Assembly (NCBI GenBank): GCA_038880755.1
Contig: JAVZRC010000002.1
Span: 31,821 to 95,820, forward strand
Source of the DNA: Candidatus Micrarchaeia archaeon
Lineage (GTDB): Archaea; Micrarchaeota; Micrarchaeia; CABMEP01
Reading direction: 5' to 3'
Length of the DNA stretch: 64,000 nt
Shown here: in pieces, positions 6,802 to 23,083 of the stretch
How positions within the stretch are numbered: the first letter of the stretch is position 1
How the letters are laid out: every line of letters starts with the position of its first letter
The notes under the pieces: generated by a model
The model's database searches: none
Seen by the model: the letters and a program-made list of their open reading frames with translations, nothing else
What the model was told of the DNA's origin: nothing
Program-made: the position numbers and the translations under genes

Positions 6802-7599
6802 TTAATCCTTTCGTTTTTCTTTTTGTATTTCCTCATACATCCTTTCATTTTCTTTGAGATCTTCTTTTATATATTCTTTAATATTATCCTTCTCACTGTC
6901 AGATATTTCCCTGAAACCTTTTGAAGTATACTCTTTAAGCATAGAATTGGCAATATTTGTCATTAATTCCTTTTCAAATTCAATCAGTTCTTTTCCATAT
7001 TTAATTGCATCTTCGTAATAAAGATCTATTTCTTTTTCCTTTCGATATTCTCTATATCCCTCTTTATTAAAGTATAAACCATGTGCTGCATAGAATAATG
7101 CCTTTAAAGTTATATGTTTCTCAATTATACTCCGAGCATCGTCTGTATAGATTTTCAATCTTTCTTCGATTGCTTGTAATTTCTTTAGTAATATTTCTTT
7201 TGATTCACGATAAGTTTTCTTTTCTATCGCAAGATAATGATCTGTGGTGTAATCTAAAATCAACGCAGCTGGGTTCCCTGTTTTTTTATATACAGATTCG
7301 AAAATTTTTTTAGCAATTTCCAAACTCGCAGGAGTACCATCGCCATACCAATAGTTATCGAGAATTTTCAATCCTTTCTTTAATAACTTATCGTTTTCCA
7401 CTTCACTAGCAATATATGGTGGCGGATTTGCGCGAAGATATATCGCATCTGCCTTTTTTGCAGGATGCAAAAGTAATGAAGCACCTAATAGACCTGCAGC
7501 TAATGGTTTTTTCATTCTCTGCCATAATGAAGGCTTCTTTTCTTCCTTCTTTTCTCCTTTCTTTATTATCTTCTCCTCTCTTTCTGCCATAAATATCAT
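6802..7599 (-). CDS. Membrane-anchored/secreted helical protein, paralog A (function unknown)
   Basis: K/E-rich N-terminus, then signal-anchor 'KKPLAAGLLGASLLL'. The first ~45 aa are identical to 10365-11168; the rest is about two-thirds identical by eye. The true start may be the second ATG (7588-7590). Confidence 0.7.
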   Translation of the reverse strand: MIFMAEREEKIIKKGEKKEEKKPSLWQRMKKPLAAGLLGASLLLHPAKKADAIYLRANPPPYIASEVENDKLLKKGLKILDNYWYGDGTPASLEIAKKIFESVYKKTGNPAALILDYTTDHYLAIEKKTYRESKEILLKKLQAIEERLKIYTDDARSIIEKHITLKALFYAAHGLYFNKEGYREYRKEKEIDLYYEDAIKYGKELIEFEKELMTNIANSMLKEYTSKGFREISDSEKDNIKEYIKEDLKENERMYEEIQKEKRKD

Positions 7600-7928: not shown

Positions 7929-8723
7929 TTAATCGTTTCGTTTTTCATTTACTAGTTCTTCGTACATTTTTTCATGTTGTGGAAAATTTCTTTTTGTCCA
8001 ATTTATAATCCCATTTTTTTCAGTATCAGATAATTGTCGTAATTCGGTTGAAGTATACTCTTTAAGCACTAAATTAGAAATATCTGTCATTAATGCCTTT
8101 TCAAATTCGATCAATTCTTTTACATATTTAATTGCATCTTCATAATAAAGATCTATTTCGTCTTTCTTTCGATATTCTCTATATTCCTCTTTATTAAAGT
8201 ATAAACCATATGCTGCATGGGATAATGCCATTAAAGTTATATGTTTTTCAGTTATGCTCCGAGCATCATCTGGATAGATTTTCAATCTTTCTTCAACTGC
8301 TTGTAATTTCTTTAACAGAAGTTCTTTTGATTCTTGATATGTCTTCTTTTCTACAGCCATATAATGATATGTAGTATTTTCTAAATCTAAAGCTACCGGA
8401 TTTCCCGTTTTTTTGTATACTGAATCAAAAATTTTTTTAGCAATTTCCAGACTCTCAATAGTGCCATTTCTATTCCAATAATTAACAAGAATTTCGTATC
8501 CTTTCTTTAACAACTTATCTTCTTCATTAGCAGCATATTCTGGTGGCGGTCTTGCAAGAATAGGAAGAGCACCCACCTTTTTTGCAGGACTGAAAAGCAA
8601 TGAAGCACCTAACAGACCTGCAGCTAATGGCTTCTTCATTCTCTGCCATAAAGAAGGTTTCTTCTCTTCCTTCTTTTCTTCTTTCTTTATTATCTTCTCC
8701 TCTCTTTCTGTCATAAATATCAT
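7929..8723 (-). CDS. Membrane-anchored/secreted helical protein, paralog B
   Basis: Same N-terminus ('MIFMTEREEKIIKKEEKKEEKKPSLWQRMKKPLAAGLLGASLL') and overall similarity to 6802-7599 and 10365-11168. Confidence 0.7.
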   Translation of the reverse strand: MIFMTEREEKIIKKEEKKEEKKPSLWQRMKKPLAAGLLGASLLFSPAKKVGALPILARPPPEYAANEEDKLLKKGYEILVNYWNRNGTIESLEIAKKIFDSVYKKTGNPVALDLENTTYHYMAVEKKTYQESKELLLKKLQAVEERLKIYPDDARSITEKHITLMALSHAAYGLYFNKEEYREYRKKDEIDLYYEDAIKYVKELIEFEKALMTDISNLVLKEYTSTELRQLSDTEKNGIINWTKRNFPQHEKMYEELVNEKRND

Positions 8724-8743: not shown

Positions 8744-8896
8744 GGTAACTCTTTCTTGGCTTTGGAGAAGTCCTGTGATGAGAAAATAGGATTTCCACAT
8801 CTTATTATTTAGCTTTTAAACAAGTTTTTATTTTCTAAATCGAAACATTTATAATCTATGCTAATTATATTTATCATATAATAGAAAATAGGTTGA

Positions 8897-10180
8897 TTGC
8901 ATATGCCAAACATAAAAGAAGAAATGATAAATTTAAACCCTTGGTGGAAAGGCGAATTTAAATTATCTTTTAAAGATAGAGAGATCTATAGAAAAATTCA
9001 GAAATTCATACCTCTCCCGCAAATAATAGCTTTAACTGGGCTTAGGAGAGTTGGAAAAACAACTATACTTTTTAAGCTTGCTGAAGATGCAATAAACCAA
9101 GGGCTAGATCCTAAAAACATTCTTTATTTCTCTTTTGATGAATTCAAAGCGATCGAAATTAAAAAGATTGTTAGCGAATATGAAGAATTATTTGGAAAAA
9201 ACTTAAGAAATGGTAAATTTCTTTTTCTTTTTGATGAAATACAAAAGTTAGATGATTGGGAAAATCAATTAAAAGCATTTTATGATGTATATGGTAAAAA
9301 TGCAAAGATAATAATATCTGGTTCTGAATCGCTGTTTATAAAAAAGAAATCTAAAGAAACCCTTGCAGGAAGATTATTTGAATTTAAGGTAGAGCCCCTC
9401 TCATTCAAAGAATTTCTAAATTTTAAACAATTGAAATTTGAACCTGTTGAACTATATGAAAGAGAATTAAAAGAACAGTTTAAAGAATTTACTTTAACAT
9501 ATGGTTTTCCTGAGCTAGTAGGCATAAAGGATAAAGAGATCATTAAAAAATACGTTGTTGAAAGCATCGTAGAAAAAGTAATTTACAAAGATATACCCTC
9601 CCTAATGAAAGTAAAAGACATATCTATTATTGCGTCTCTTTTAAATACAATCATGGAGGAACCGGGACAACTTGCCGAAGTTTCTGAGTTTGCAAATAAT
9701 TTGAAAATCTCAAGATATACAACGGCTTCCTATCTTAGATATCTTGAAGATTCATTTCTAATTAGGAAACTCTATAACTTCTCTCGAAGCAGAAGAAAAG
9801 TGGAAAGAAAACTAAAGAAATATTATCCTACTATCATCTCTCCCAGTTTACTTTTCCGTAATGATGAACTTTCGCAATCAAAAGTATTTGAATGGATGAT
9901 TGTAAATCAACTTAGAGCTGAATTCTTTTGGCGAGATGCGTACAAAAATGAAGTGGACATTATCCTATTAAATGAGCAACCCACCCCTATTGAAGTGAAG
10001 TATGGAAAAATTGAATTCGAAGGCTTATCTACTTTCATGGAAAAATTCAATGTTAAGAGAGGTTATATTGTTTCTTTAGATACAGAAGAAAAGAAAAATA
10101 TCGGTGAGAAGGCAGTAGATGTAATTCCAGCCTTTAAATTCTTGTTAAGGCAAAGCACAGAAATTTATGATCAAGAATAG
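8897..10180 (+). CDS. AAA+ ATPase of the COG1373 / DUF4143-type family
   Basis: N-terminal 'NPWW'. Walker A 'GLRRVGKTT'. Walker B 'LFLFDEIQ'. The likely real start is the ATG at 8903. Confidence 0.65.
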   Translation: MHMPNIKEEMINLNPWWKGEFKLSFKDREIYRKIQKFIPLPQIIALTGLRRVGKTTILFKLAEDAINQGLDPKNILYFSFDEFKAIEIKKIVSEYEELFGKNLRNGKFLFLFDEIQKLDDWENQLKAFYDVYGKNAKIIISGSESLFIKKKSKETLAGRLFEFKVEPLSFKEFLNFKQLKFEPVELYERELKEQFKEFTLTYGFPELVGIKDKEIIKKYVVESIVEKVIYKDIPSLMKVKDISIIASLLNTIMEEPGQLAEVSEFANNLKISRYTTASYLRYLEDSFLIRKLYNFSRSRRKVERKLKKYYPTIISPSLLFRNDELSQSKVFEWMIVNQLRAEFFWRDAYKNEVDIILLNEQPTPIEVKYGKIEFEGLSTFMEKFNVKRGYIVSLDTEEKKNIGEKAVDVIPAFKFLLRQSTEIYDQE

Positions 10181-10186
10181 AACAGT

Positions 10187-10339
10187 TCATAAAAGAGTGG
10201 TTGATTCATTGAGGAGTGAAGTCATGTGTTGATGAGGAAGAGAAGGAGTGGTGGTAGCAGAGGCTGGTTTAGTATGATTATATTCTGGCTTTTGGGACCT
10301 CCCAATATGATCCCTATTCGAAACATGAAATAAGATCAT
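10187..10339 (-). pseudogene. 50-aa remnant of the coiled-coil gene 5' end (third copy), cut 7 nt from the ATPase stop
   Basis: My own translation gives 'MILFHVSNRDHIGRSQKPEYNHTKPASATTTPSLPHQHMTSLLNESTTLL*'. It matches the N-terminal module and stops where the full-length gene continues with 'SPEAMKAY'. Confidence 0.6.
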
Positions 10340-10364
10340 AAATCACTTTTTCTAAAAGACATTT

Positions 10365-11168
10365 TTAATCCTTTCTTTTTTCTTTTAATAATTCCTCATA
10401 CATGTTTTCGTTTTCTACGAGGTACTTTTTTAAGTGCTTTATAGCATCATCTCTTTCCGTATCATCAATTTCAATCGGTCCTGTTGAAGTATACACATTG
10501 AATTTTGAATTAGATAATAATTTATATAAATATTCTTTTTCAAATTCAATCAGTTTTTTTCCATATTCAATTGCATCTTTGTAATAAAGATCAATTTCCT
10601 TTTCATTTCGATATTTTCTGTATTCCTCTTTATTAAAGTATAAACCATGTGCTGCGTGAAATAATGCCTCTAAAGTTTCTTCTTTTTTATCTAAAGCACG
10701 AATATCATCTGGATATGATTTTAATCTTTCTTCAACTGATTTCAATTTATTTAACAATCTCGCCTTTGACTGATAATAATTTCTGTCTTCTATAGCGAGA
10801 TAATGATCTGTAACATGATTCAAATCTAATGCAACCGGGTTTCCTGTCTTTTTGTATATAGATTCGAAAATTTTTTTGGCAATTTCTAAACTTTCAGGAG
10901 TACCGTCACCATACCAATAGTTATTGAGGATTTCCAATCCTTTCTTTAATAGCTTATCTTTTTCCACTTCAGCAGCGGCATAAGGTGGGGGCGGTCTTGC
11001 AAGAAGATATATAGCATCCACCCTCTTTGCAGAACTGAAAAGTAATGAAGCACCTAACAGACCTGCAGCTAATGGTTTTTTCATTCTCTGCCATAATGAA
11101 GGCTTCTTTTCTTCCTTCTTTTCTCCTTTCTTTATTATCTTCTCCTCTCTTTCTGCCATAAATATCAT
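10365..11168 (-). CDS. Membrane-anchored/secreted helical protein, paralog C
   Basis: N-terminal 45 aa identical to paralog A. Conserved blocks 'GDGTP.SLEIAKKIFES.YKKTGNP' and 'HGLYFNKE.YR.YR.EKEIDLYY.DAI.YGK.LIEFEKE'. Confidence 0.7.
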   Translation of the reverse strand: MIFMAEREEKIIKKGEKKEEKKPSLWQRMKKPLAAGLLGASLLFSSAKRVDAIYLLARPPPPYAAAEVEKDKLLKKGLEILNNYWYGDGTPESLEIAKKIFESIYKKTGNPVALDLNHVTDHYLAIEDRNYYQSKARLLNKLKSVEERLKSYPDDIRALDKKEETLEALFHAAHGLYFNKEEYRKYRNEKEIDLYYKDAIEYGKKLIEFEKEYLYKLLSNSKFNVYTSTGPIEIDDTERDDAIKHLKKYLVENENMYEELLKEKRKD

Positions 11169-11180
11169 TCGCTGTTTAGA

Positions 11181-11188
11181 TATTTAAA
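11181..11188 (-). promoter_or_regulatory. TATA box (TTTAAATA) of paralog C
   Basis: Same conserved element and spacing as at 7612-7619. Confidence 0.5.
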
Positions 11189-11351
11189 GGTAACTTGAAT
11201 GAGAAAGCAGATGCGTAGATGTTTTGAAGTTTGAGCGCATAGTGCAAACAACAGTAAAAAAGAAAAGTAGAAAAGTTTTTAAAGTATTATTTTGTATACT
11301 ATAAGTATAAGAATACTTTATGACGATTACAATTTGTGAAGGTGATATGGT

Positions 11352-11696
11352 ATGACTCAGAAACAAGCTTGGTTTGTAGGTATCTTGCTGTTGGGCATTT
11401 TCCTTACTAACATCATATATGCGCAAGATTCAAATCTAAGTAATTATACTAAAAATGCTACAGCAGAATTGTTAGGTAAAAATTCTGTAATATGCAAACT
11501 TCTTGGAGTACTTAATGTATTTGGTGCCGTCGCAATGACTTCTGGTATTTTATTAGCAGGTTATAACTTCTTATCTGCAAGCCAGGAAGCAAGGGAAAAA
11601 GGTAAAATCGGAACCGAGGGAGTGTTGATTGGCGGTGGCCTTATAATGATGGCTCCACAAATAGTGTCCTACATCTTCGGTTTCGCGGTTTGCTAA
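11352..11696 (+). CDS. VirB2/TrbC-like (or CedA1/A2-like) small membrane protein 1
   Basis: Signal peptide 'WFVGILLLGIFLTNIIYA', then two hydrophobic helices separated by the charged loop 'SQEAREKGKIGTE'. C-terminal 'IMMAPQIVSYIFG' is shared with 14446-14844. GGTGA SD. Confidence 0.55.
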   Translation: MTQKQAWFVGILLLGIFLTNIIYAQDSNLSNYTKNATAELLGKNSVICKLLGVLNVFGAVAMTSGILLAGYNFLSASQEAREKGKIGTEGVLIGGGLIMMAPQIVSYIFGFAVC

Positions 11697-11718
11697 TTAA
11701 CTACTTAAGGGCGTAGTT

Positions 11719-14373
11719 ATGGCATATCCAATTCCAAAATCAATCGCATACGAAGAAAAAATCGCATTTGGATTGACTTTGAAACAATTAGGTTATGCCA
11801 TAATTGGAATAGCAATCGCATATAATCTGTTTAATATTTTTGCTCCTTTTGATTTTACTATTGCAGCTGTCATTGCATATTTTGTAATTATGATCACTGC
11901 AGGTTTTATCTTTTTAGATTTGGAAGAAAAGCTGTTAATGCTTTTAGATTATCATTTAAACGTTAAACATGGTGGATTCGATTCTCCTGAAGTTAAAAAA
12001 TTCATGGAAGTTGCATCAATACGTGATGATATAATTTTTCTTAAAAATGGAGAAATGAGAGCAGTTATTCGTGTAAGACCGGTAAACTTTTCAACAATAG
12101 ATGAAGAAAAAAAAGAAAGAATAACAGCTCTTTTCGCATCTTTTCTGCAACAATTAGAAGGACCAATTCAACTTCATGTTAGAACTGTCAATGTGGATAT
12201 AAGAGATCAGTTGGATGCATGGGAAAAGCAAATAGAAAAGAGAAATAAAGAACTATTGCCACTTTTCAAAGATTTCAGAAAATATGAAGAACGATTATTA
12301 AGAGAAAATACAGTTAGAGAAAGGCTTTTTTATATCATCGTTCCATTCACTCCTGTAAAAAATGCAAAAGATAACATTGATCAATTAAATAGAAAGGTCC
12401 AAATTATTCAAGAAGCCCTTTTTGGAATTGGTTTAGCAAACAACCGCTTGACTTCTGATGAACTAGTCGCATTTTTAGCAAGTTACTTTGAAGAACGTCT
12501 GTTAGTAAGAAATGAGTATCTGGGAGGGAGGACATTACTATCTCGATGGATAGAAAGTCGAGATGAAAAAATAGCACCAAAACTTAAAGACGAAATGCTT
12601 TCAAGTATATTGTGTCCTTCAAGAATTGAAACAACTCCAGAATACATAAGAATAAATGAAATTTATTATCGTCCTATCATAGGAGTTGGTTTCCCAAAGT
12701 ATGTGGAAAGTGGATGGTTGGAAAGATTAATAGGAACGCGTGACAATTATGACATCTCTATACATATTGAACCAACTTCAATTGAAGCTGCAAAGGTTAT
12801 GTTGCATAAACAGATTGTAAAAGAAGAGGCAGATCTTGCCATATCAATGGCAAAAGGAGTTCCAAACCCATCTTTAGAAAACCTCCTTGCAGATACAAAG
12901 GAATTCTTTGATTGGCTAGATAGAGGAGAGGAACAATTATTTAGTGTAAGTATATATGTAGTCGCAAAAGCAAGAACAAAAGATGAGTTGGACTTCTTAA
13001 CAGCAAAATGTAAATCTGATCTTAATGCTGTATCAATAATACCAAAAATCCCATACTATCAAATGGCAACTGCATTAAAATCAGCAATGCCATTAGGGCT
13101 TGACAGAATTAAAAAGGTAAGAGAATTTCCAACATCAACCCTAGCAGCATCATTTCCCTTCATGACAACTACAGTTGAATCGGATGAGAGCGGAAATGGA
13201 ACTCTAATAGCACATGACAGAGCAACTCTTAATCCAATCATCGTTGATTTCAATAAGCTTTCCAATGCGCATTTCATGCTTCTTGCAAAGAGTGGCGCTG
13301 GTAAATCATACACTAGTAAACTATTGCTTACAAGAATGCTCATGAACGGTGCAAGAATATATGTCGTTGATCCTAATGGTGAATATAATCGACTATGTCA
13401 GCATTATGCTGGAGAACGTATAATTTTATCTAGAGACTCACCAAATATTATAAACCCATTAGATTTATTCAATGAAGACTATGCTGATAAGCGTATATCA
13501 CTCATTGCAATATTCTCAATAATCTGCAACGGATTATCCCCTGTTGCAGAAGGAATAATTGATCGTGTTTTAAATGCAGTATACGAAAAGAAAGGAATAA
13601 CAAATGATCCAGAAACATGGAACAAACGACCACCAATAATGAGTGATGTTCTGGCAGAACTTGAAGAAGAGAAAAAAAGACTTGAAAAAATACAAAATAA
13701 GACTGAACTTAAAGAAGTACAAATGCTGATTACAAAGATAAGCAGATATACAAAGAAGGGAGTTTATGGTTTTGTAGATAAGCAAACAAAATTAGATACT
13801 AGCAAGGGTTTTGTAGTATTTGATATTAATGAATTACCAGATGAAGTAAAGCCACTTTTCATGTTCTTAGTTTTGGATTACATCATAAATATTACAAAAA
13901 GCAATCTCGATAAAAAAGCAGTTGTAATAGATGAGGGCTGGTCATTATTAAATAATCCAAAAACTGCTGAACATCTTTTATGGTTGATAAAGGCATCAAG
14001 AAAATTCAATACCAGCATGATATTTATAACCCAGGAAGTAAATGACCTTTTAGGTACCAAAGCTGGAGAATCTATCCTAGCAAACACTGCAATCAAGATT
14101 ATGCTCGCACAAGATGAGACCGTAATCAACGCATTATCAGACATAATGCATTTAAATGAAACAGAAAAAACTCTATTGACTGTTGCTAAAAGAGGAGAAG
14201 GAATTTTATTCATTGAGAATTCTGTTAGAGTTCCAATCATAATTACAGCATCGCCAAAAGAACATGAATTAATAACCACCCATCCAGAAGAACTAAAGGC
14301 AATACAAGAAGAAAAGAAAGCAGTGAAAGAAAGGGAAAATGCAAGGTCAAAATCAAAAGGAAATGATAAATAA
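11719..14373 (+). CDS. VirB4/TrbE/CedB-like type IV secretion ATPase with an N-terminal VirB3-like 2-TM segment
   Basis: Two N-terminal TM helices. Walker A 'LLAKSGAGKSYTSK'. Walker B 'KKAVVIDEGWSLL'. 'MIFITQEVNDL' block. The size (884 aa) is typical of VirB4/TraC. Confidence 0.75.
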   Translation: MAYPIPKSIAYEEKIAFGLTLKQLGYAIIGIAIAYNLFNIFAPFDFTIAAVIAYFVIMITAGFIFLDLEEKLLMLLDYHLNVKHGGFDSPEVKKFMEVASIRDDIIFLKNGEMRAVIRVRPVNFSTIDEEKKERITALFASFLQQLEGPIQLHVRTVNVDIRDQLDAWEKQIEKRNKELLPLFKDFRKYEERLLRENTVRERLFYIIVPFTPVKNAKDNIDQLNRKVQIIQEALFGIGLANNRLTSDELVAFLASYFEERLLVRNEYLGGRTLLSRWIESRDEKIAPKLKDEMLSSILCPSRIETTPEYIRINEIYYRPIIGVGFPKYVESGWLERLIGTRDNYDISIHIEPTSIEAAKVMLHKQIVKEEADLAISMAKGVPNPSLENLLADTKEFFDWLDRGEEQLFSVSIYVVAKARTKDELDFLTAKCKSDLNAVSIIPKIPYYQMATALKSAMPLGLDRIKKVREFPTSTLAASFPFMTTTVESDESGNGTLIAHDRATLNPIIVDFNKLSNAHFMLLAKSGAGKSYTSKLLLTRMLMNGARIYVVDPNGEYNRLCQHYAGERIILSRDSPNIINPLDLFNEDYADKRISLIAIFSIICNGLSPVAEGIIDRVLNAVYEKKGITNDPETWNKRPPIMSDVLAELEEEKKRLEKIQNKTELKEVQMLITKISRYTKKGVYGFVDKQTKLDTSKGFVVFDINELPDEVKPLFMFLVLDYIINITKSNLDKKAVVIDEGWSLLNNPKTAEHLLWLIKASRKFNTSMIFITQEVNDLLGTKAGESILANTAIKIMLAQDETVINALSDIMHLNETEKTLLTVAKRGEGILFIENSVRVPIIITASPKEHELITTHPEELKAIQEEKKAVKERENARSKSKGNDK

Positions 14374-14445
14374 TTTTGATAAAATATAACATAAATTTTT
14401 AAATATAAATTTCTTATTAGATATATATTCGAATTTAAATTAAAT

Positions 14446-14844
14446 GTGATAACTATGAAAATCAAAAATGAAAAAAATTCAAAAGAAAAAAATAAAGAAA
14501 GGATGAACTTTAAAAAAAATAAAATATTGACATTGGTACTGCTTACATTTATCTTGAATATACTGGTTGCCGTTGTTTCTGCCGCAAACAGCAATGTTAG
14601 AGAAGTAATTGGTAAAATACATGGCTATGCAACGGTTCTAGCAGCAATAGGATTCAGTATAATTATCTTCTATTCAGGTTATAAATTTTATTTTGCAGAA
14701 AGTGAACTTGAAAGGAAAGATGCCTGGACGACTTTAGGGTATGGAATAATAGGTGCTTTGCTGGTTATTATGGCACCTAAGATTGGTAGTTATTTGATGG
14801 GAGATACGTCTCTTTTTTCTAGTGATCCAAAATGTACGATTTAG
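14446..14844 (+). CDS. VirB2/TrbC-like small membrane protein 2 (paralog of 11352-11696)
   Basis: Signal peptide 'LTLVLLTFILNILVAVVSA'. Two hydrophobic helices around 'AESELERKDAW'. 'VIMAPKIGSYLMG' motif. The probable start is the ATG at 14455. Confidence 0.55.
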   Translation: MITMKIKNEKNSKEKNKERMNFKKNKILTLVLLTFILNILVAVVSAANSNVREVIGKIHGYATVLAAIGFSIIIFYSGYKFYFAESELERKDAWTTLGYGIIGALLVIMAPKIGSYLMGDTSLFSSDPKCTI

Positions 14845-16724
14845 ATGATTCCCAGCATGCAAGAAATATAAATCTCAATCATTTCAACCATAATGTTTCA
14901 GACTATAGGGTTAAACAAAATCTAAGAATTGGATTAAATATAAAATTCTTACTACTATATTTTTTATTTCTTGGTTTATTTTCTTATTCTCATACACGGT
15001 CTGATGTTTTTTATGATAAAGATTATAGTATCCAAAATTTCAATAGCCCTTTGCTTGAATATAATTTATGTGAATTAATTGCGAAAAGTTATTATGCCAA
15101 TTGCACTAATGGTGATTTATTCAAACAAATGACAGATCTGTTAAATAGTTTTTTGACAAATTTATTTGGAAGTAAATCAGATACTAGTTGTATATCTCAA
15201 ACAACTAAGCTATTTTTTAACTGCAGTGAAATCTATGAATCAAACCTGACTGAGTATGAGAAAAAAATGTTAATCGCTAATTATCTAATTAATGAAAGTG
15301 GGCCGGAAATGTCTCTAAAAATAAATAAGATCAATAGTATTATTTTGGAGAGGATAAATTCTGATCTTGGTATTCATAGAAAAGTGGCACCATCAAATAC
15401 AAAAGTATACGAGGGTAAACTTTTTAGGAATACTTGGATAAAAATAGTTTACACGAATAATTCATTTGTTGATGAAAATAATAAAACATGGGTTCTTTTC
15501 GGCCAAAAACCAGAATTTATATATAATATTGACTTTGTTTATTTCTTACCAGAAAAAAATGAAGAGGATTGTGCTTCCCCTACAATTAGCAATAAAGGTA
15601 ATTATGATTTTACAATCCATACCTTATATGATGGATTAGAGACAGAATATTTCAATACAACTCAACACGGTAAAGAAGTGAACTTTACAGTTGTTCTTAA
15701 TTTCAATGGTCAATTTAGCTACAAACGATACCACGAAATAACTGTAGAAGTTTGTGATAATCAAACTTGTTGGAATGAAACTAGGTGCGAACCATATGAA
15801 ATAACAATAAAAGAAACAGGTTCGATCTCAGATTCAAAGCTGTTCACGATATTTGGGAATGATATCGCTTCAGCTTATATATTTACAGATAGCAAGAAAT
15901 TTTATAATATGAACAACATAGGAATAAATGGTTTTGCATTTGTCATTATCCCTCCAGTTTATAATTGTATTCTCTCCATCTATGGAAAAAATTTAACTAT
16001 TAGCCATACTCTAGTGTATCCAGATATTTTAGATTCTGCACCATATGATTTTTTAGTACATAGAAGAAATGGTGGCTTCACTCAATTATTCTTTCCGCTT
16101 GATCTTTCTGCTAATTCAATTATTAATTTACAACATGATTATGAGAACAACAACTCTAATCAAGAAGCGATCCAATTGATGTTAGATTATAATGTTCCAA
16201 TTGAGATAATCAATTTATTTAATCATAGCAAAATTATAAGTTTCATTCACTTTAATCTATATTCAAATAATATTTCTGATTGTAGTTTAATGTGTTATAA
16301 TATTTTTGGAACTGTATCGACACAGCAAATAAGTTGCAATTATAATTATTCAAGGAAGAGCTGGATTACAATTGAAAAGAAAAATATTTCAGATAGATAT
16401 ATGGAAGTTAAAATAAAACTAACTGATTCTTTGAACAACTCATTATCAGGAAAGAAACTAAAAATAATCTATCCCGGTTTTATTATCGATGGAATTACAG
16501 ATGCGAATGGAGAGTATATATTAAACATATCAAAAGGAGAGAGAGCGATTCTATTAGATGTCTACTTTGATACTGATGGAAAATATATGAGTTCTTCAAA
16601 TTCGATAGAAATAGATCCTTTACCTAAAGAATCGGAATTTTTATTCTGGATTAAGATTTTTATCGTTTTTGGTTTATTATATTACAGTTATAAGCAGATC
16701 TTGTATATGTATAGATATATCTGA
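14832..16724 (+). CDS. Sequon- and Cys-rich surface protein with N- and C-terminal TM anchors (function unknown)
   Basis: TM 'FLLLYFLFLGLFSY' near the N-terminus and 'FLFWIKIFIVFGLLYYSY' at the C-terminus. Many N-x-S/T sequons. The start overlaps the preceding gene by 13 nt. Confidence 0.6.
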   Translation: MYDLDDSQHARNINLNHFNHNVSDYRVKQNLRIGLNIKFLLLYFLFLGLFSYSHTRSDVFYDKDYSIQNFNSPLLEYNLCELIAKSYYANCTNGDLFKQMTDLLNSFLTNLFGSKSDTSCISQTTKLFFNCSEIYESNLTEYEKKMLIANYLINESGPEMSLKINKINSIILERINSDLGIHRKVAPSNTKVYEGKLFRNTWIKIVYTNNSFVDENNKTWVLFGQKPEFIYNIDFVYFLPEKNEEDCASPTISNKGNYDFTIHTLYDGLETEYFNTTQHGKEVNFTVVLNFNGQFSYKRYHEITVEVCDNQTCWNETRCEPYEITIKETGSISDSKLFTIFGNDIASAYIFTDSKKFYNMNNIGINGFAFVIIPPVYNCILSIYGKNLTISHTLVYPDILDSAPYDFLVHRRNGGFTQLFFPLDLSANSIINLQHDYENNNSNQEAIQLMLDYNVPIEIINLFNHSKIISFIHFNLYSNNISDCSLMCYNIFGTVSTQQISCNYNYSRKSWITIEKKNISDRYMEVKIKLTDSLNNSLSGKKLKIIYPGFIIDGITDANGEYILNISKGERAILLDVYFDTDGKYMSSSNSIEIDPLPKESEFLFWIKIFIVFGLLYYSYKQILYMYRYI

Positions 16725-16766
16725 TATGAATAAATATTAACTCGATGACAAAATTAGGTTGATTTA

Positions 16767-18242
16767 ATGATTTTAGAAAGTTTACTGAAAACAAATAAAA
16801 TAAAGAAGATAAATTTAAGCAGTTTCTTTCTCATTTCTATCTTCACACTATTTCTTATTCTTTTCCCAATCATAAATGCATACGAAGTAGATAAAAATCA
16901 GAGTTATATACTTATTTATGATCCGCAAAAAATTGATGAGTTGAGTGGATTTAATCCTAGTAATATAACATTATGCGAGGATAATACTTCTAATTGCGGC
17001 GGGGGCAGTACTAAATTTGATATAGTTTCCATAATCACTGCTGGTCTAGATATTATTCTAAAATTCATCCTAGATTTTTTCTCAGGTCTATTTACAAATG
17101 TTATTAGTGGAATAGTTAAAGCTTTTACAAAGATTTTCTTTTGGTTTATCGCTTCATTTCCAAATCTTTCTACGCCAAGTATAGCCTGTGAATACAATAA
17201 AGTTTATTCGCTTGTTGCATCACTTTATTCTTTAGCAATAGCAGTCGTCGGTTTATACTGGGTATTTGGTGCTACCGACACCTCAAAAAGAATTCAAGCC
17301 AAAGAATATACTGAATTATTATTCTTTATAATCATTGCAGAAACAGTAGCTCCATATCTATTTAACATACTTGTAGATTTAAGCTTATCATTAACTACTA
17401 TATTTTTGAATGAAGATACTATTGGTAAATTTCTTGGTACGATTGTAGTTGGGATTCTTAGTGGTGCTGCAATTATTGTAATGACATGGGGACCGACGAC
17501 GCCGTTTCTTTTATTGATTCTACTTATCATGTTTATACTTACTCTTCTTCTTTTATTTGTTAGAAATCTATTGATTGCCATCATGTACGTCTTGCTACCA
17601 CTTTCTATATTTCTATACTTCTTTCCTCTTACTAGGCGCGTAGGTGCTAACTTATTAAGATATACAGTGACGCTAATCTTTTCTCCTTTAATACTTGGGA
17701 TAGTGTTGTACGCTGCGATAGTTGTGAGTGAAGCAGTACTTGGTCCATTCTTCTATGTGTTGAGTGTTTTATATTTAATAATAATCCTTTATTTGATATA
17801 CAAGATTCTTTCAGCAATAACATTGGGTGCATTATCCGAAATGCTATCTAATATTCTTAACGCACAACTAAGTTTTCCAAGTGCATTATCGATGGGGAAA
17901 GAAGCTGCTACATACCTTATAGGTCCAATGGGTGGGGGAGGCAGTGCGCTTTCCTATTTGGCTCTTGGGGCAAAGGGTTATTTCGCCAGAACGGTGCCTC
18001 GTGTTATGAGATCATTTTCTCATATTAAAGTTCCTATGCCAACCATAAAGACCACGCAAAAAGGTTTGGGGGTTTCTATTAAAGAGGTACAGCCTTTTAA
18101 AGCATTTGAAAGACCACTTGCAGAAAGGATACCTGTCTTAGACCAGATCCAACGTATAAACCTATCTAAAGAGGTAAAGAAAAATATTGAGTATCTAAAA
18201 AGAAAGGATACAGAACCTGTTAAAAAGCAAAGACGAAAATAG
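16767..18242 (+). CDS. Polytopic membrane protein, VirB6/TrbL/CedA-like
   Basis: Signal-like N-terminus, a short Cys-containing ectodomain, then ~7-8 hydrophobic helices and a basic cytoplasmic tail. It is the last gene of the VirB4 operon. Confidence 0.5.
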   Translation: MILESLLKTNKIKKINLSSFFLISIFTLFLILFPIINAYEVDKNQSYILIYDPQKIDELSGFNPSNITLCEDNTSNCGGGSTKFDIVSIITAGLDIILKFILDFFSGLFTNVISGIVKAFTKIFFWFIASFPNLSTPSIACEYNKVYSLVASLYSLAIAVVGLYWVFGATDTSKRIQAKEYTELLFFIIIAETVAPYLFNILVDLSLSLTTIFLNEDTIGKFLGTIVVGILSGAAIIVMTWGPTTPFLLLILLIMFILTLLLLFVRNLLIAIMYVLLPLSIFLYFFPLTRRVGANLLRYTVTLIFSPLILGIVLYAAIVVSEAVLGPFFYVLSVLYLIIILYLIYKILSAITLGALSEMLSNILNAQLSFPSALSMGKEAATYLIGPMGGGGSALSYLALGAKGYFARTVPRVMRSFSHIKVPMPTIKTTQKGLGVSIKEVQPFKAFERPLAERIPVLDQIQRINLSKEVKKNIEYLKRKDTEPVKKQRRK

Positions 18243-18260
18243 AAAAAAAGAAATAAAAAT

Positions 18261-18282
18261 ATAAATAGAAAAATAGAAAAAT
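18261..18282 (-). terminator. Oligo-T terminator-like element (ATTTTTCTATTTTTCTATTTAT on the minus strand)
   Basis: Lies immediately downstream of the stop of 18286-19416. It is a tandem TTTTTCTA motif. Archaeal termination uses oligo-T tracts. Confidence 0.4.
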
Positions 18283-18285
18283 CCC

Positions 18286-19416
18286 TTATTCAGTTGTAAT
18301 AAATGCCCACCAGGGTCTTTCAATTTCTAAAGCTCCTGCATTTTCAACATTTATCTTTGCCCTGGTTTCCATTGCAACTGGAATAATTCCCAATATCTTT
18401 CTGTTTTCTTTGAGATCTGCACTGTATATTAGTTTATTATTTTCAATCTTTATCTGTAATTTGCTCATTACTGAATTTTTGATTCTTTCTTGAAGCCTTT
18501 CTTTTACTTCAGCAGGAGTTATAGATAAGTTCTTATCATTTATCATTGTTTCATTTTCAGTTATAACAACATTTGCAGTTGGTTCTATCTCAGCTTCAGT
18601 GTCTTTTTCCACTATCTTTAATCTTTCTTGTATTCTTGTGATATTCATTTCTCTATCTTTTATTCTTGCTTTAATTGAAATGTTTGTTGAATTTATCTCT
18701 TCATCTCCAAGTTTAGCAACAGATCTATTTAGATGTATTGCAGTTGCGATTGGTAAAACATCTGCGGCGTTAATTTCTTTTCTTTCTGCAATAATCTGTT
18801 TGATCTGCATCATGGTCTCCTCTTTTATCTGTTCTCTTATTTGATTTCTTAGTTGAGTATCATTAATTGATGACAGATTCTGGATTCTTTCAACATATGT
18901 AGAAACCACCTGCCTCATTTCTTGATTAAGCTCCTGTTGTCTTATCGGAACTGTATTTGTCTTGCATCTGGAAACCTGTTCCATTACTCTTTCCCTTAGA
19001 GTTAAGGCTTCCTCCCTTAATAGAGGAATCATTTCCCTGTTTTTATTTTGCACTGCATTTCTGTATTTTAAGTAAAGATTAATTATCTCTGTCTTTGTTT
19101 CTTCATCTATGCATTGCATTATCCTTGTTTCATTTGCATACTTTATAGCCGAATAAATATCATCTACTTCTGCTATATTAAATTCAGATGTGCTAGTTTC
19201 ATTAGTTTTATTTGAAGATACATTAGAAGACATTGTTCCTTCCTTAAAGTCTTCTGAAACTCCAGTATCTTTTGTAACCATAGGCTTATCTGTAACATTT
19301 GGATTTCCAGAAGATCCAGGAGAAATCTGGCCTTGTGCAAAACTGAATGCAGATATCAGATTCAACATTATAAAAATAAGTAAGACATTCCAAATATTCA
19401 GATATTGTCTTCCCAT
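18286..19416 (-). CDS. Secreted protein, function unknown
   Basis: Signal peptide 'IWNVLLIFIMLNLISAFSFAQG', an S/T/N-rich linker, then a helical Q/E/R-rich body. Confidence 0.6.
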   Translation of the reverse strand: MGRQYLNIWNVLLIFIMLNLISAFSFAQGQISPGSSGNPNVTDKPMVTKDTGVSEDFKEGTMSSNVSSNKTNETSTSEFNIAEVDDIYSAIKYANETRIMQCIDEETKTEIINLYLKYRNAVQNKNREMIPLLREEALTLRERVMEQVSRCKTNTVPIRQQELNQEMRQVVSTYVERIQNLSSINDTQLRNQIREQIKEETMMQIKQIIAERKEINAADVLPIATAIHLNRSVAKLGDEEINSTNISIKARIKDREMNITRIQERLKIVEKDTEAEIEPTANVVITENETMINDKNLSITPAEVKERLQERIKNSVMSKLQIKIENNKLIYSADLKENRKILGIIPVAMETRAKINVENAGALEIERPWWAFITTE

Positions 19417-19486
19417 GCCAAACCACCTTTACTATCTATCAATCAATAAATATATAAAATTATTATACACATCAAACCTTCCAAAA

Positions 19487-20062
19487 TCACTTTGATTCTT
19501 CAAGGTTTTTTATTATCTGTTCTATATTCTCTCTTTTGAATATCTTTTTGTAGAGAAAATCAGGGACGCAATCAATCTTAAGGTGCAAACATTTTGCTTC
19601 GAAACGCTGCTTGAAATCAGTTAACAATACAATTTTAGGAGGTTTAATATTAATGCGTTCATATTTTTCTTTAATAAGATGTATATAATTCGAAGCGTAT
19701 AACATATCAACTTTCTCGAGAGCTTCATCGCTTATTATAATGGCGTCAAAAACTAAGTTTAAATCACTTCTATTAGTGATTAATTCATTAATGTGTGAAC
19801 AGGTATAAAAAGAAACATTAATGTCTGAAGTATTTTTTAAAATACATGTACGCTCTGCTAAAGAAGGTGAAATAAATAGTATTCTTTTTACATTTGCTTT
19901 GTTATCAATTGTAGTTTTATCTTCTTTCGATTTGCTGTCGTCTTTTACCTTGCCTATTCTATCATTGATTGATTCTTTTCTAAAAGTAATTTTTTCTTTA
20001 AATTTATTTTCATCTCTTTTTTTATACATATCACTAAATTTCACAGAACCACTTTTTAACAC
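19487..20062 (-). CDS. Receiver-domain-like protein (probable pseudo-receiver)
   Basis: (beta-alpha)5-like pattern: 'ILFISPS', 'FDAIIISDEA', 'KIVLLTDF', 'DFLYKK'. The N-terminal acidic pair of canonical receivers is replaced by 'SPS'. Confidence 0.45.
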   Translation of the reverse strand: MLKSGSVKFSDMYKKRDENKFKEKITFRKESINDRIGKVKDDSKSKEDKTTIDNKANVKRILFISPSLAERTCILKNTSDINVSFYTCSHINELITNRSDLNLVFDAIIISDEALEKVDMLYASNYIHLIKEKYERINIKPPKIVLLTDFKQRFEAKCLHLKIDCVPDFLYKKIFKRENIEQIIKNLEESK

Positions 20063-20074
20063 TGACTTACAGAT

Positions 20075-20653
20075 TCAATTCTGAGTTTTGAATTTTCTTA
20101 TACCTTTCATAATTGATTCTGTTATTTGATCTTTATTTTTAGGCAACAATTTTTTGATTAGTTTTATCCTTTCGTTAATCTCTTCCTCTGAATTATGAGA
20201 TGATATGAATTCTTTTGCATTTTTATTTGAATCCGATGTATCTACATAATTTTTAGTATCTTCAAAATTAAGTATATGAGTCTTTTCTCTAGAGATTAAA
20301 CTTAAAGGACCATAATCTATAACAGAATAGTAATCTATATTTTCTTTATCCATCCAACTTAAGATAGCTTTTTTATAAAGGTATATATTTTCTATTCTCT
20401 TTTTTACTCTTCTCCATATTAATTGAGTTTTATTATCATATAAATCCGTATACTTTATTTCGATTGGCTCTAAATAATAATTTATTTCGTTTCTATTGTA
20501 ATTGAACTCTATGAAATCAACTCTTATCTTAGAAAAATATATAACACCATGATGTTTTTTATCGATAATTTCAGCAATTGGATAATCAAAAATTTTACCA
20601 TTATACTTTTGATATTTGAAAAAACCAATGTTATTCTTTATATCATCAAACAA
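20075..20653 (-). CDS. Hypothetical protein
   Basis: 192-aa ORF packed in a same-strand operon. No recognisable motif. Confidence 0.5.
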   Translation of the reverse strand: MFDDIKNNIGFFKYQKYNGKIFDYPIAEIIDKKHHGVIYFSKIRVDFIEFNYNRNEINYYLEPIEIKYTDLYDNKTQLIWRRVKKRIENIYLYKKAILSWMDKENIDYYSVIDYGPLSLISREKTHILNFEDTKNYVDTSDSNKNAKEFISSHNSEEEINERIKLIKKLLPKNKDQITESIMKGIRKFKTQN

Positions 20654-20664
20654 ACTATCACCAA

Positions 20665-21111
20665 TTATTCATTATAAAATCTCTTTGGTAATTTCAATTT
20701 CTTTTTTCCAGACTTTATCTGTTTAATGAATGAGTCTGCTATTTCTTCCCTAGTCTCCTTATTTAATTGGAACAAAACTGCATCTTTAACTTTAACCGCT
20801 TCTCTGTCAAATAGCTTTCTTGCCATAGGCATATCTATGCAATCTTTTACCATTCTAAATGTATCTTTCAATTCTAAATTTGTATTTTGTGTAATTATCT
20901 TTGCAAAATCTAGGCTGATTATATCTCTGAAAATACTTATACCAAGATCATCTCTTCTTTGATCAAATCTTTTAACTTCCTTGAAGAATTGAGATGGTGT
21001 TTTAATTTTGTCCATATCCGGCAACATCTTACTCTCTAGATATAAAAGCTTCTTCATCTTCTCTCTTATTAAGAGATCTGGATTATTCTTATATTTTGAT
21101 ATAAAATCCAT
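20665..21111 (-). CDS. Hypothetical protein
   Basis: 148-aa ORF. Its ATG directly abuts the stop of the upstream gene (21112). Confidence 0.5.
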   Translation of the reverse strand: MDFISKYKNNPDLLIREKMKKLLYLESKMLPDMDKIKTPSQFFKEVKRFDQRRDDLGISIFRDIISLDFAKIITQNTNLELKDTFRMVKDCIDMPMARKLFDREAVKVKDAVLFQLNKETREEIADSFIKQIKSGKKKLKLPKRFYNE

Positions 21112-21363
21112 CTACTCCTCCTCTATTTTTTTCCATCTTTGATTATAAATTTCTATCCTCTTAGTAAATATATTTCTAGCTATGTTGTATTGATGTGTGT
21201 ATATTTCCTTCTTTTTATCATCTGCTTTTTTTATTAGATCTTCATAAATTAATTTAATTCTAGAATAAACTTGAAATTCCTTGGTTTTCTTTATTTCCTC
21301 TATTATGTATTCATTATGCCTCTTAAGCTTATCTTCATTACATTTGGAATTTTCAATTCCCAT
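21112..21363 (-). CDS. Hypothetical small helical protein
   Basis: 83-aa charged ORF, contiguous with the downstream gene. Confidence 0.45.
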   Translation of the reverse strand: MGIENSKCNEDKLKRHNEYIIEEIKKTKEFQVYSRIKLIYEDLIKKADDKKKEIYTHQYNIARNIFTKRIEIYNQRWKKIEEE

Positions 21364-21464
21364 AATAATCTAACAAATATGTTATATATAAATCTTTTGT
21401 TTTGTATATTGGCTAAAAATGGGCTTATGAATAGAATTTCTATTGCTAATAAAAATAGAATTAG

Positions 21465-21935
21465 TCAATAAAAAATTTCGAAATTTCCATTATCTTTATT
21501 TAATATTACATCAGGCTTAACCGAATATTTTCTTATGTTTATATTTCCCCTATAGGTTAAGAATATATTTATTTCTGAATTTGTCTTTTTTGACAAAGCT
21601 TTAAATAAAGAGACTAAAAGTGGAGCCATTCCATTTTCAATAGCATCATCAATAATGATCGCGGAAAGAGTTCTGTCCTCCATAGCCTTACTTGCATACT
21701 TTACCCCATCATTATGGGAAAATAATTTAATGAATTTATTTCCTGGAAAAAAGCTTTCATAAAAGTTATCATCTGCAGGATTCGGATCTATAATGACTAT
21801 AACAGAATGCTGCTGTGATTTAATGCTATTTTCAATTAATGGATTAGTTTCTAATTTATCAAATCTCTCTATTTTATCTAGAAGATAATCTTGTTTCCTT
21901 TCAATTTTTTTACTTTCATTATCCATATATATCAT
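21465..21935 (-). CDS. Stand-alone CheY-like receiver domain protein
   Basis: 'VIVIIDPNPADD', 'LSAIIIDDAIENGMAP' (phospho-acceptor Asp position), 'INIFLTY' (Thr), 'SVKPDVIL' (Lys-Pro). Overlaps the HAD gene by 17 nt. Confidence 0.55.
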   Translation of the reverse strand: MIYMDNESKKIERKQDYLLDKIERFDKLETNPLIENSIKSQQHSVIVIIDPNPADDNFYESFFPGNKFIKLFSHNDGVKYASKAMEDRTLSAIIIDDAIENGMAPLLVSLFKALSKKTNSEINIFLTYRGNINIRKYSVKPDVILNKDNGNFEIFY

Positions 21936-22590
21936 TTCCTATTATTTTTTCGTAAACAGATATGATATGGAAATGAGAAAGTGTAACCTTTGCTTTTTCG
22001 ATATTCTTCTCGACAAACTCAATCATATTTTTTTCTTCGCTAAAGCTGTATTGAGTTGCAAGACCTATAAACTTAATATCTGCAGAAATTGCCGCTTCAC
22101 CATCGGATACACAATCTCCTACATATACTATTTTAGTATTGGAAGTGTTTTTTAGTTGTTTAAGCGCTTCTAACTTTCCATCATGTGGAATTATTATTTG
22201 AGAAAAAACTTCATTTACCAATCTCTCTCCTAACTTATAAATCGTATTTTCATACAATTCAAGACTAAGTATATGCAAATCAATCTCCTTTGCCTTAAGA
22301 GCATAAAGAACATTTATTACATTGGGTATTATCTCAGGTTTATTTTTTCTTATTTCTTTTTTAAAGAATTCATAGACCCAATAATTAAATTCATCGGCTA
22401 GCTCCAAAGGAACGCCAATGGCTTTTGCAGTGTTTCGAAATTTATTTGATTGGTCATAATTCTTTCTTAACATTTCAAGTGACGGTTCCTTTAGCTTAAA
22501 TTTTTGACATGCTAGACAATAGCTTTTGTAAACATGCGGAAGAGTATTCACTAAAGTTCCATCTACATCAAATACTATCATATTTCGCAT
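21919..22590 (-). CDS. HAD-superfamily hydrolase (phosphoglycolate phosphatase-like)
   Basis: Motif I 'VFDVDGTLVNT'. Motif IV 'VYVGDCVSDGEAA'. Confidence 0.75.
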   Translation of the reverse strand: MRNMIVFDVDGTLVNTLPHVYKSYCLACQKFKLKEPSLEMLRKNYDQSNKFRNTAKAIGVPLELADEFNYWVYEFFKKEIRKNKPEIIPNVINVLYALKAKEIDLHILSLELYENTIYKLGERLVNEVFSQIIIPHDGKLEALKQLKNTSNTKIVYVGDCVSDGEAAISADIKFIGLATQYSFSEEKNMIEFVEKNIEKAKVTLSHFHIISVYEKIIGNDIYG

Positions 22591-23053: not shown

Positions 23054-23083
23054 TAATTTTTAAATCTTTACTACGAATATAAA

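Follow-up and report, generated by a model that had tools for sequence, protein, structure and literature searches.

A predicted minimal type IV secretion cassette lacking a neighbouring coupling protein gene in a Micrarchaeia archaeon

The window analysed here, a stretch of 64,000 nucleotides of contig JAVZRC010000002.1 (positions 31,821 to 95,820 of the forward strand; assembly GCA_038880755.1, Candidatus Micrarchaeia archaeon), contains at positions 11352-18242 a cassette of five genes. Judging by its sequence, the cassette is a chromosomal, self-contained, minimal type IV secretion system (T4SS), consisting of two VirB2-type pilins, a VirB3-VirB4 ATPase, a VirB6-like protein and a Cys-rich protein. 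The identity of the cassette as a minimal T4SS without a type IV coupling protein (T4CP) is very probable. As for its role, the chances are about even that the cassette would form a pilus or channel at the contact with a host, importing macromolecules from the host or the environment, with nucleic acid as the most likely cargo; this reading is built on analogy with characterized T4SSs devoid of a T4CP.

All five open reading frames (ORFs) proposed in the preliminary description were found on the + strand at their expected positions and with their expected sizes of 114, 884, 132, 630 and 491 aa. The spacing between consecutive genes is 22, 72, -13 and 42 nt; accordingly, the five closely spaced co-directional genes form a compact operon. 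A Shine-Dalgarno-like motif, GGTGA, and an A/T-rich TATA-like sequence can be read upstream of the first gene, pil1. In the annotation of some metagenome-assembled genomes (MAGs), a later start is assigned to the 630-aa gene (531 aa), and the second pilin gene, pil2, is called as 129 aa.

The gene at 11719..14373 (+) encodes the motor of the machine, an ATPase in which PrgI(VirB3) is fused to VirB4. The 884-aa protein matches the Pfam families P-loop_TraG (1.6e-27), DUF87 (2.1e-18), AAA_10 and TraC_F_IV, and carries the precomputed TraC-like annotation PF26593. Full-length matches in NCBIfam were obtained for VirB4_plasma (1e-87), the CD1110 family (1.1e-85), TraC (1e-51) and VirB4_CagE (1e-40), all four scoring under the curated equivalog cut-offs; the best models are VirB4 of a Mycoplasma integrative conjugative element (ICE; 1e-87) and the Firmicutes CD1110 family (1e-85). 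The C-terminal half matches the C-terminal domain of Thermoanaerobacter VirB4 (PDB 4ag5, 1.4e-37). The protein thus has the composition of VirB4, namely, a TraC-like N-terminal domain and a C-terminal P-loop domain with both Walker motifs. Walker A, AKSGAGKS (13285..13308, +), was located by a regular expression match starting at residue 523, and Walker B, AVVIDEGW (13918..13941, +), was read from the translation. Residues G526, G528, K529 and S530 of the former and D738, E739 and W741 of the latter are invariant in two VirB4 alignments of relatives, at 38-85% identity. A PrgI/VirB3-like membrane domain is present at residues 4-64 (11728..11910, +), scoring 35.3 bits against a Pfam PrgI cut-off of 27; two hydrophobic helices are located at residues 15-70 by hydropathy. 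The VirB3/PrgI-like small membrane partner is therefore present in fused form, and both the ATPase motifs and the VirB3-VirB4 fusion, suggested earlier from the letters alone, are borne out by the family models.

Both small proteins are pilins of the VirB2/TrbC type. The precursor encoded by pil1 (11352..11696, +; 114 aa) exceeds the cut-off of Pfam TrbC PF04956 (29.8 bits, cut-off 27.9) and gives 23.7 bits with T4SS_pilin. The precursor encoded by pil2 (14446..14844, +; 132 aa) exceeds the thresholds of both TrbC (36.0 bits, cut-off 27.9) and T4SS_pilin (31.9 bits, cut-off 26.6), and also matches the NCBIfam Mbov_0395 pilin-like model (2.4e-5). According to hydropathy, pil1 is represented by a leader ending at about '...IIYA|QD' and two subsequent hydrophobic helices, and three sequons lie in the N-terminal region of the mature form; the leader of pil2 is long and basic, ending at about '...VVSA|AN'. 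The two proteins are paralogs (phmmer E about 1e-8), as was supposed in the preliminary description along with their pilin-like nature. The position of pil1 is kept in relatives at 66% and 43% identity, and that of pil2, after VirB4, is kept in relatives as well.

The last gene of the cassette (16767..18242, +) encodes a 491-aa polytopic membrane protein, presumably the channel and the platform for pilus assembly, which is probably VirB6-like, as indicated by its fold matches, its gene neighbourhood and a pilin-like hairpin within the sequence. About 7-8 transmembrane (TM) helices, as previously described, are supported by hydropathy and by the AF2 model. The protein has no direct family match. 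A profile of the protein and its relatives retrieved 816 proteins from a representative library of 1.8 billion proteins. The hidden Markov model (HMM) of the family matches the polytopic ORF adjoining VirB4 in archaeal loci (1e-96 to 1e-24), as well as polytopic ORFs of 540-1110 aa upstream of VirB4 in loci of Patescibacteria. The AF2 model used was obtained with 72 sequences and has a pLDDT of 74, above 90 in the membrane core; the model obtained with 7 sequences (pLDDT 55) was unusable. In a Foldseek search of PDB, hits 1, 2, 4, 5 and 6 are R388 TrwI/VirB6, with a probability of 0.63-1.0.

The pilin-like helical hairpin occupies approximately residues 145-215 of the VirB6-like protein (17199..17411, +). 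The HMM of the short pilins matches the hairpin region in about 40 members of the 491-aa family, and reciprocally the HMM of the family matches free pilins at profile columns of about 76-145; Pfam T4SS_pilin was detected in 23 of the 72 members and the NCBIfam Mbov_0395 pilin-like model in 10 of them. The resemblance can be seen in the segment '...VAPYLFNIL' of the 491-aa protein compared with 'MAPQIVSYI' and 'MAPKIGSYL' of the pilins. The same relationship between a pilin and a polytopic protein has been reported for VirB2-VirB6 and CedA1-CedA (Beltran et al., PMC9905601). The VirB6/TrbL topology claimed earlier is thus sustained by synteny, the fold search and the hairpin, but its support from family models is weak or missing: only 3 of the 72 members matched Pfam TrbL, none with E better than 1e-3, no NCBIfam VirB6 match was obtained in the family, and an hhalign comparison with a Firmicutes VirB6 profile of two sequences, a shallow template, was non-significant. 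The structural matches to TrwI/VirB6 are themselves weak, with E of 0.03 or worse and TM-score of 0.46 or lower. A Pfam scan of 10 random family members was uninformative, and local HMMs were used instead.

Between pil2 and the VirB6-like gene, p630 (14832..16724, +) encodes a Cys- and sequon-rich extracellular accessory protein without a known family and with a conserved C-terminal hydrophobic tail. It contains 19 N-X-S/T sequons against 9.4 expected, and all 12 Cys residues are invariant in the two closest homologues, which also keep the C-terminal tail. No match to p630 was found in Pfam, NCBIfam, PHROG or PDB, and the word-index search returned only two relatives. Homologues at the same position in the cassette were found in loci L184 (48% identity), L101 (26%), L105, L111 and L125, and are absent from L103; in distant loci, no counterpart beside VirB4 was detected by phmmer, and p630 was found there through its profile. 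The sequon and Cys richness noted earlier was thus confirmed, but anchoring at both ends is only plausible: the N-terminal hydrophobic stretch may be a cleaved signal peptide, and the C-terminal segment (residues of about 603-620), although the most conserved part of the protein, lies under the hydropathy cut-off. The protein p630 is a fast-evolving surface protein, and may be an adhesin or a tip or host-recognition component. Profile searches of PDB sequences with the alignments of the pilins, the 491-aa family and p630 yielded nothing, even at E of 10 or less.

An identical VirB4 together with the same operon is present in at least six assemblies, namely, five MAGs and one Logan assembly. 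More distant relatives, with VirB4 identity of 85% (L184), 65% (L101) and 54%, keep the order pilin, VirB3/4, pilin, (p630), VirB6-like, p630 being absent from the relative with 54% identity. In L101 the cassette is followed directly by genes of Nop5, aminoacyl-tRNA synthetase and fibrillarin. The cassette therefore recurs as a unit in differing housekeeping neighbourhoods. Identities to L184 are 85% for VirB4, 66% for pil1, 56% for pil2, 48% for p630 and 43% for the VirB6-like protein; the corresponding values for L101 are 65, 43, 36, 26 and 32%. The rate of divergence of the envelope components is thus two to three times that of the ATPase, a pattern that would be expected of components exposed on the surface or contacting a host.

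Comparison with strain L006 showed 99.8% nucleotide identity over 8752-24357 and 64-74% across 3543-6697, upstream of the cassette. Strains belonging to one population are thus divided by a sharp recombination boundary at about 8750; upstream of it the gene content differs, and a hypervariable island adjoins the cassette.

Among species-representative genomes, the next best VirB4 matches come from five MAGs bearing the label 'archaeon' (34-40% identity), after which hundreds of Patescibacteria appear. In a scan of metagenomes with the archaeal-only alignment, the archaeal clade proved widespread, about 55 additional loci being recovered. The metagenomic loci were assigned to Archaea by membership in the VirB4 clade and, for L011-L015, by the labels of the submitters; no archaeal markers (TFB, PolB, Nop5, fibrillarin) were found in their available flanks. 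The core order VirB2, VirB6-like, VirB3+VirB4N ORF, VirB4C is present in 30 of the 36 metagenomic loci of at least 9 kb, and in none of these 36 loci was a second large P-loop ATPase found beside VirB4. VirB4 of the sister archaeal clade (L011-L015, L110-L165) is split into an ORF of 281-333 aa with 1-3 predicted TM helices and a subsequent ORF of about 750 aa, the two being adjacent and often overlapping. The Micrarchaeia group, like L111 and L162, has a single fused VirB4 gene of about 880 aa or more. Distant soil loci with 28-30% VirB4 identity (L167, L170, L173, L181-L183) contain a pilin, a VirB6-like protein of 470-680 aa and VirB4; in L167, L170, L181 and L183 a P-loop ORF of 830-1013 aa directly follows VirB4. 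The latter is presumably a T4CP, in which case these loci represent a conjugative-type contrast to the archaeal clade.

A neighbour-joining (NJ) tree of VirB4 (102 sequences, 574 columns, 100 bootstraps) showed the archaeal clade with 100% bootstrap support and a clade of Patescibacteria, excluding the archaeal one, with 87%. The node joining the two clades is supported by 20-41%, with interference from a Carboxydocella plasmid sequence. VirB4 of the cassette does not fall inside the monophyletic Patescibacteria clade; nesting of the archaeal clade within Patescibacteria, corresponding to a recent transfer from the candidate phyla radiation (CPR) to DPANN, was rejected by the NJ bootstraps. 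By score, VirB4s of Patescibacteria are the highest non-archaeal matches (339-367 bits), compared with 199 bits or less by phmmer and 212 bits by tblastn for the best sampled VirB4 of a conjugative plasmid, and 52 bits (20% identity; 76 bits by tblastn) for VirB4 of a Halobacterium plasmid, which represents the archaeal conjugative plasmids in the sample. Leaving topology aside, the T4SSs of Patescibacteria are, by sequence similarity, the nearest apparent non-archaeal kin of the cassette.

The hallmarks of conjugation were not detected in the surroundings of this copy. Pfam scans of the larger ORFs of the window revealed no T4CP/VirD4, relaxase or integrase, scans of the flanking ORFs with Pfam, NCBIfam and PHROG revealed no relaxase families, and the 8 kb beyond the left end of the window yielded neither a VirD4-type ATPase nor a relaxase nor an integrase. 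The only proteins with Walker A/P-loop motifs in the first 29 kb are VirB4 and an AAA_14 ATPase. A six-frame search of the window with the profile of the archaeal-clade integrase was negative. No VirB7-11, VirB8-like or VirB1-like genes were found near the cassette, and no att-like boundary was found in the 72 kb around this copy, where the search for att repeats was non-exhaustive; tRNA genes of the window are located at least 29 kb from the cassette. The absence of VirD4, relaxase and integrase stated in the preliminary description is therefore upheld for the window and 8 kb upstream.

In the sister subclade, genes of mobility are linked to the same core. A tyrosine integrase (Pfam Phage_integrase) is encoded 3-7 kb upstream of the VirB2-VirB6-VirB4 core in 12 loci, and in three of them (L137:703-2022, L147:4411-5731 and L152:3151-4621) a tRNA gene is located directly before the integrase gene. 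The cargo of the integrase-linked loci includes Fic, Schlafen/AlbA_2, AlwI endonuclease, DUF4145 and AAA_14. The archaeal lineage is thus at least partly carried on integrated elements, and a mobile-element origin of the cassette is likely. No attR repeats were found in the available flanks of three integrase-bearing loci, and no archaeal-clade integrase was found in the available flanks of the Micrarchaeia-group loci; the Micrarchaeia group represents a clade of its own, not nested among the integrase-linked loci. Downstream of the T4SS core of L152 (15600-17400), tandem Cys-rich modules of about 60 codons are present (repeat family D1, five copies), which suggests repetitive secreted proteins.

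The DPANN-like archaeal context supposed for the window was confirmed, since the identical VirB4 has been deposited from a Candidatus Micrarchaeia MAG (kingdom Nanobdellati, DPANN). Genes of TFIIB, Trm1, an Elp3-like protein, B-family polymerase and other housekeeping genes of archaeal type are present at 29-64 kb of the window. The first 28 kb contain the tail of a type III restriction-modification (R-M) system, a Cas4-like nuclease, an AAA_14/DUF4143 ATPase, the cassette, several ORFans, a histidine kinase, a membrane-anchored DNase I homologue and an SLT-domain protein. GC content is ~0.26-0.34 in positions 1-28000 and ~0.35-0.37 in positions 28000-48000; the step near 28 kb coincides with the onset of housekeeping genes (TFIIB at 29086). 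Only the R-M system and genes of housekeeping type were found in the 8 kb beyond the left end of the window. The first ORF of the window, at 74-1687 (+), corresponds to the C-terminal portion of a ResIII-type restriction subunit of 987 aa, upstream of which an N6/N4 methyltransferase of 777 aa is encoded (L001:4608-9908); together they represent a type III-like R-M system, and two Endonuc_Holl genes and one rhomboid gene are located farther upstream.

In the proposed mechanism, a VirB4 hexamer would be docked on the membrane via the fused VirB3-like helices and would use ATP to extract from the membrane the pilins processed by signal peptidase. The pilins would polymerize on the VirB6 platform, giving a short pilus or a conduit across the archaeal envelope, and p630, anchored via its conserved C-terminal helix, would decorate or cap the structure and recognize the host surface. 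The formation of a pilus or conduit at host contact is slightly favoured; the import direction and the nucleic-acid substrate, for which the argument is one of analogy, are proposed tentatively, at somewhat less than an even chance. Among the characterized minimal systems without a T4CP, Ced and ComB of Helicobacter pylori are DNA importers, and Ted has been proposed as one. Import is favoured because a coupling protein is lacking, because importers without a T4CP provide a precedent, and because uptake has been proposed for the T4SSs of Patescibacteria.

A number of points weigh against the import of macromolecules at host contact, including the weakness of the VirB6 matches described above. 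Sequence does not tell in which direction transport proceeds. A gene for a T4CP or relaxase may be present in another part of the genome, and the tRNA and integrase linkage in the sister subclade suggests self-transfer as the ancestral job of the machine. The DNase I homologue located downstream of the cassette is not syntenic with it in relatives. Archaeal conjugative plasmids and genomes lack a recognizable relaxase anyway (PMC9905601, PMC12857230), and for this reason the absence of relaxase is weak evidence. Of the earlier proposal that the cassette is an uptake or host-contact apparatus and not a conjugative exporter, the local absence of conjugation hallmarks has stood, but uptake itself may be proposed only conditionally, and the mobile-element origin has to be taken into account.

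It is rather unlikely, but deserves to be weighed, that the cassette is the transfer module of a non-canonical archaeal ICE, possibly immobilized, exporting the DNA of the element itself and possibly using an unrecognized coupling or processing protein such as the neighbouring AAA_14/DUF4143 ATPase. The 12 sister-subclade loci with integrase, three of them with tRNA, and their island cargo agree with this explanation, as do the low GC content, R-M system, Cas4-like nuclease and many ORFans of the first 28 kb, the hypervariability of the upstream flank between strains, the conjugative VirB4s as the closest curated family models, and the existence of archaeal conjugative elements without a recognizable relaxase. 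The surroundings of this copy agree with it poorly, as neither integrase nor T4CP nor, in a non-exhaustive search, an att-like boundary was found in 72 kb; moreover, relatives keep the five-gene cassette alone while the flanks change to housekeeping genes, the Micrarchaeia group is separate from the integrase-linked loci, no attR repeat was found in the available flanks of three of the latter, and the archaeal conjugative plasmids in the literature do encode VirD4 homologues.

An outward-acting device at host contact, namely, a T4SS-derived pilus for adhesion and/or a machine delivering proteins or effectors onto or into the host cell, and no importer, is also improbable. The presence of two pilins, one of them sequon-rich, and of a rapidly diversifying Cys-rich surface protein is compatible with such a device; three paralogs of 264-267 aa in the hypervariable flank are possible substrates, and effector delivery has been speculated for the T4SS of Saccharibacteria and for the VirB4-bearing giant proteins of Nanohaloarchaeota. 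Export, however, would have to proceed without a T4CP or another recognizable substrate receptor, and in relatives the cassette is not accompanied by any conserved candidate effector. To our knowledge, the exporters without a T4CP (Bordetella Ptl, Brucella) take their substrates from the periplasm, which is lacking in this type of cell. Finally, the minimal gene set, with VirB8, VirB1 and VirD4 missing nearby, might suggest a non-functional relic of a former mobile element; this is very improbable, since none of the five ORFs is disrupted, at least six assemblies carry an identical VirB4, the catalytic residues do not vary among relatives with 38-85% identity, and the same minimal core is present in 30 of the 36 long metagenomic loci.

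Several genes flanking the cassette were also characterized. The AAA_14/DUF4143 ATPase (8897..10180, +; Pfam AAA_14 4.8e-34, DUF4143 7e-20) is a recurrent neighbour and no more than a candidate part of the machine. Its homologues are located 2-3 genes upstream of the pilin gene in L126 (4712-6007), L138 (1256-2500), L152 (4811-6085) and L175 (4811-6085), and are also present in the CPR loci L023 and L057. The recurrence could be due to chance, the family being abundant, or to a functional partnership. Three paralogous genes of 264-267 aa (6802-7599, 7929-8723 and 10365-11168, all on the - strand; protein E about 1e-105 to 1e-118) immediately precede the cassette and form part of direct-repeat units about 1 kb long, which share 75-81% nucleotide identity; the encoded proteins have no family match, and another strain contains one full copy only. 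All three proteins show a basic N-terminus and then a hydrophobic stretch, noted by eye in the translation of p267; the stretch was not flagged by the hydropathy scan. A 376-aa secreted protein with a signal peptide, 13 sequons and a long coiled-coil region is encoded on the opposite strand (18286-19416, -), converging on the end of the cassette; it is kept in near-identical MAGs and is absent beside the cassette in L101.

Downstream of the cassette, the membrane-anchored DNase I homologue and the SLT protein of the preliminary description were both confirmed in their identities. The former (24265-25104, +) carries a TM segment at the N-terminus, contains 7 sequons, resembles bovine and human DNase I (E=4e-27) and weakly matches the model of the Mycoplasma membrane nuclease MnuA; it is plausibly a nucleotide-scavenging enzyme. 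The latter (25149-26465, -) contains an SLT domain (22.7 bits, cut-off 21.3) and a long Lys/Glu-rich C-terminal tail. The SLT domain, that of lytic murein transglycosylases, occurs here in an archaeon without peptidoglycan; similar SLT proteins of Woese- and Pacearchaeota have been interpreted as tools against bacterial walls (PMC8204110, PMC9723730). The functional link of the cassette to these two proteins, also proposed in the preliminary description, did not hold, as the arrangement is not conserved and the relative with 65% identity has Nop5, aminoacyl-tRNA synthetase and fibrillarin in this place. The SLT protein was likewise rejected as the VirB1 of the cassette, being located 7 kb away, on the opposite strand and without synteny in relatives. 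No counterparts of p376, DNase, SLT and p267 beside VirB4 were found by phmmer in distant loci, and these proteins are thus not conserved partners.

DPANN archaea have to obtain nucleotides, lipids and other building blocks that they do not make themselves, and no dedicated transfer apparatus has been defined in Micrarchaeota. The cassette offers a concrete candidate of five genes, with conservation as a unit, an intact motor and pilins, and fast-evolving surface parts. The presence of integrase-linked and integrase-free versions in one clade makes it useful for studying the domestication of conjugation machinery. As a more speculative and rather doubtful extension, DPANN may possess a widespread T4SS lineage of their own without a T4CP, akin to that of Patescibacteria, so that two unrelated radiations of ultra-small episymbionts would share one conduit for drawing nucleic acids or other macromolecules from their hosts; if true, the sharing would go back to an ancient transfer between domains or to a common recruitment of monoderm conjugative elements. 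In agreement with the preliminary description, no account of a module uniting VirB2, VirB4 and VirB6 in Micrarchaeota or in any other DPANN lineage outside the halophiles was found in the open full-text literature, where the only related report on DPANN concerns the VirB4-like domain of the giant Nanohaloarchaeota proteins; only plasmid-borne systems are listed for Archaea in a T4SS review of December 2025.

Among known systems, Ced of Sulfolobales and Ted of Thermoproteales are likewise archaeal, domesticated minimal T4SS derivatives with a VirB2-like pilin, a VirB6-like channel and a VirB4-like ATPase and without relaxase or T4CP (PMC9905601). As in TedC, the pilins of the cassette have a cleavable leader, and as in Ced and Ted, the VirB6-type protein contains a pilin-like segment. 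Unlike them, the cassette belongs to DPANN and not to hyperthermophilic Thermoproteota, has no neighbours of HerA/Rad50/ParA type, and shows no family-level sequence relationship: the model of the DNA-translocating ATPase CedD (NCBIfam NF053655) gives 36.3 bits with the 884-aa protein against a cut-off of 600, and only over the P-loop stretch of residues 518-590, while the other parts of the cassette have no match to the Ced families in NCBIfam. The designation 'Ced-like' is thus retained for the shared parts list and not for the ATPase family, the best matches of the ATPase being the monoderm conjugative VirB4 families and VirB4s of Patescibacteria. The correspondence with Ced and Ted is one of functional analogy in the sense of PMC9905601 and not of membership in a sequence family.

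Conjugative systems of the monoderm MPF-FATA class carry a T4CP, relaxase, VirB8-like proteins and a cell-wall hydrolase, and have no VirB2 pilins. The best curated family matches of VirB4 and pil2 belong to this class (pCF10 Prg/Pcf, Tn916/CD1110-CD1112, Mycoplasma ICE Mbov_0395/0397); the VirB6-PrgI-VirB4 neighbourhood is shared as well, and PrgI-VirB4 fusions occur there, for example, in Vescimonas. The cassette differs in scoring under all curated cut-offs, in having only 20-26% identity to plasmid VirB4s and in lacking the extras by which these systems are defined. The ComB system of Helicobacter pylori, an import T4SS without a T4CP, belongs to a diderm, contains a VirB7-10 core and is not closely related by sequence. 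The conjugative plasmids and ICEs of Archaea (pNOB8, pT33-3, haloarchaeal) share with the cassette a VirB4 homologue and the lack of a recognizable relaxase, but encode VirD4 homologues, and no pilin has been recognized in them. Among DPANN, a VirB4/TraG-like domain is present in the giant 'SPEARE' proteins of Nanohaloarchaeota, for which a role at the host interface has been proposed (PMC10266531); there, unlike in the cassette, the ATPase domain is part of a giant surface protein with Ig repeats, a second VirB4-like gene is located downstream, and no VirB2/VirB6 cassette has been described.

The closest comparison is provided by the T4SSs of Patescibacteria (Quinonero-Coronel et al. 2025, PMC12102498; Wang et al. 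2023, PMC10633639), which are essential for epibiotic growth and for which an uptake role has been proposed. Relaxase is usually absent from them, and no VirB3-VirB4 fusion was found in the survey (PMC12102498). The cassette differs from them in its archaeal host, the fusion of VirB3 to VirB4, the additional p630, the lack of nearby VirB8-, VirB1- and VirD4-like genes, and a shorter VirB6-like protein (491 aa against 540-1110 aa for the polytopic ORFs of CPR). Shared by both are the chromosomal location in an ultra-small, host-dependent organism, the lack of relaxase, several VirB2 paralogs, PrgI and VirB6-like genes near virB4, and a VirB4 related to the monoderm MPF-FATA class. A 2025 review counts the T4SSs of Patescibacteria, which are of monoderm type, bear pili and have been recognized only recently, as 'the most exciting newcomers'; the present cassette extends them into Archaea.

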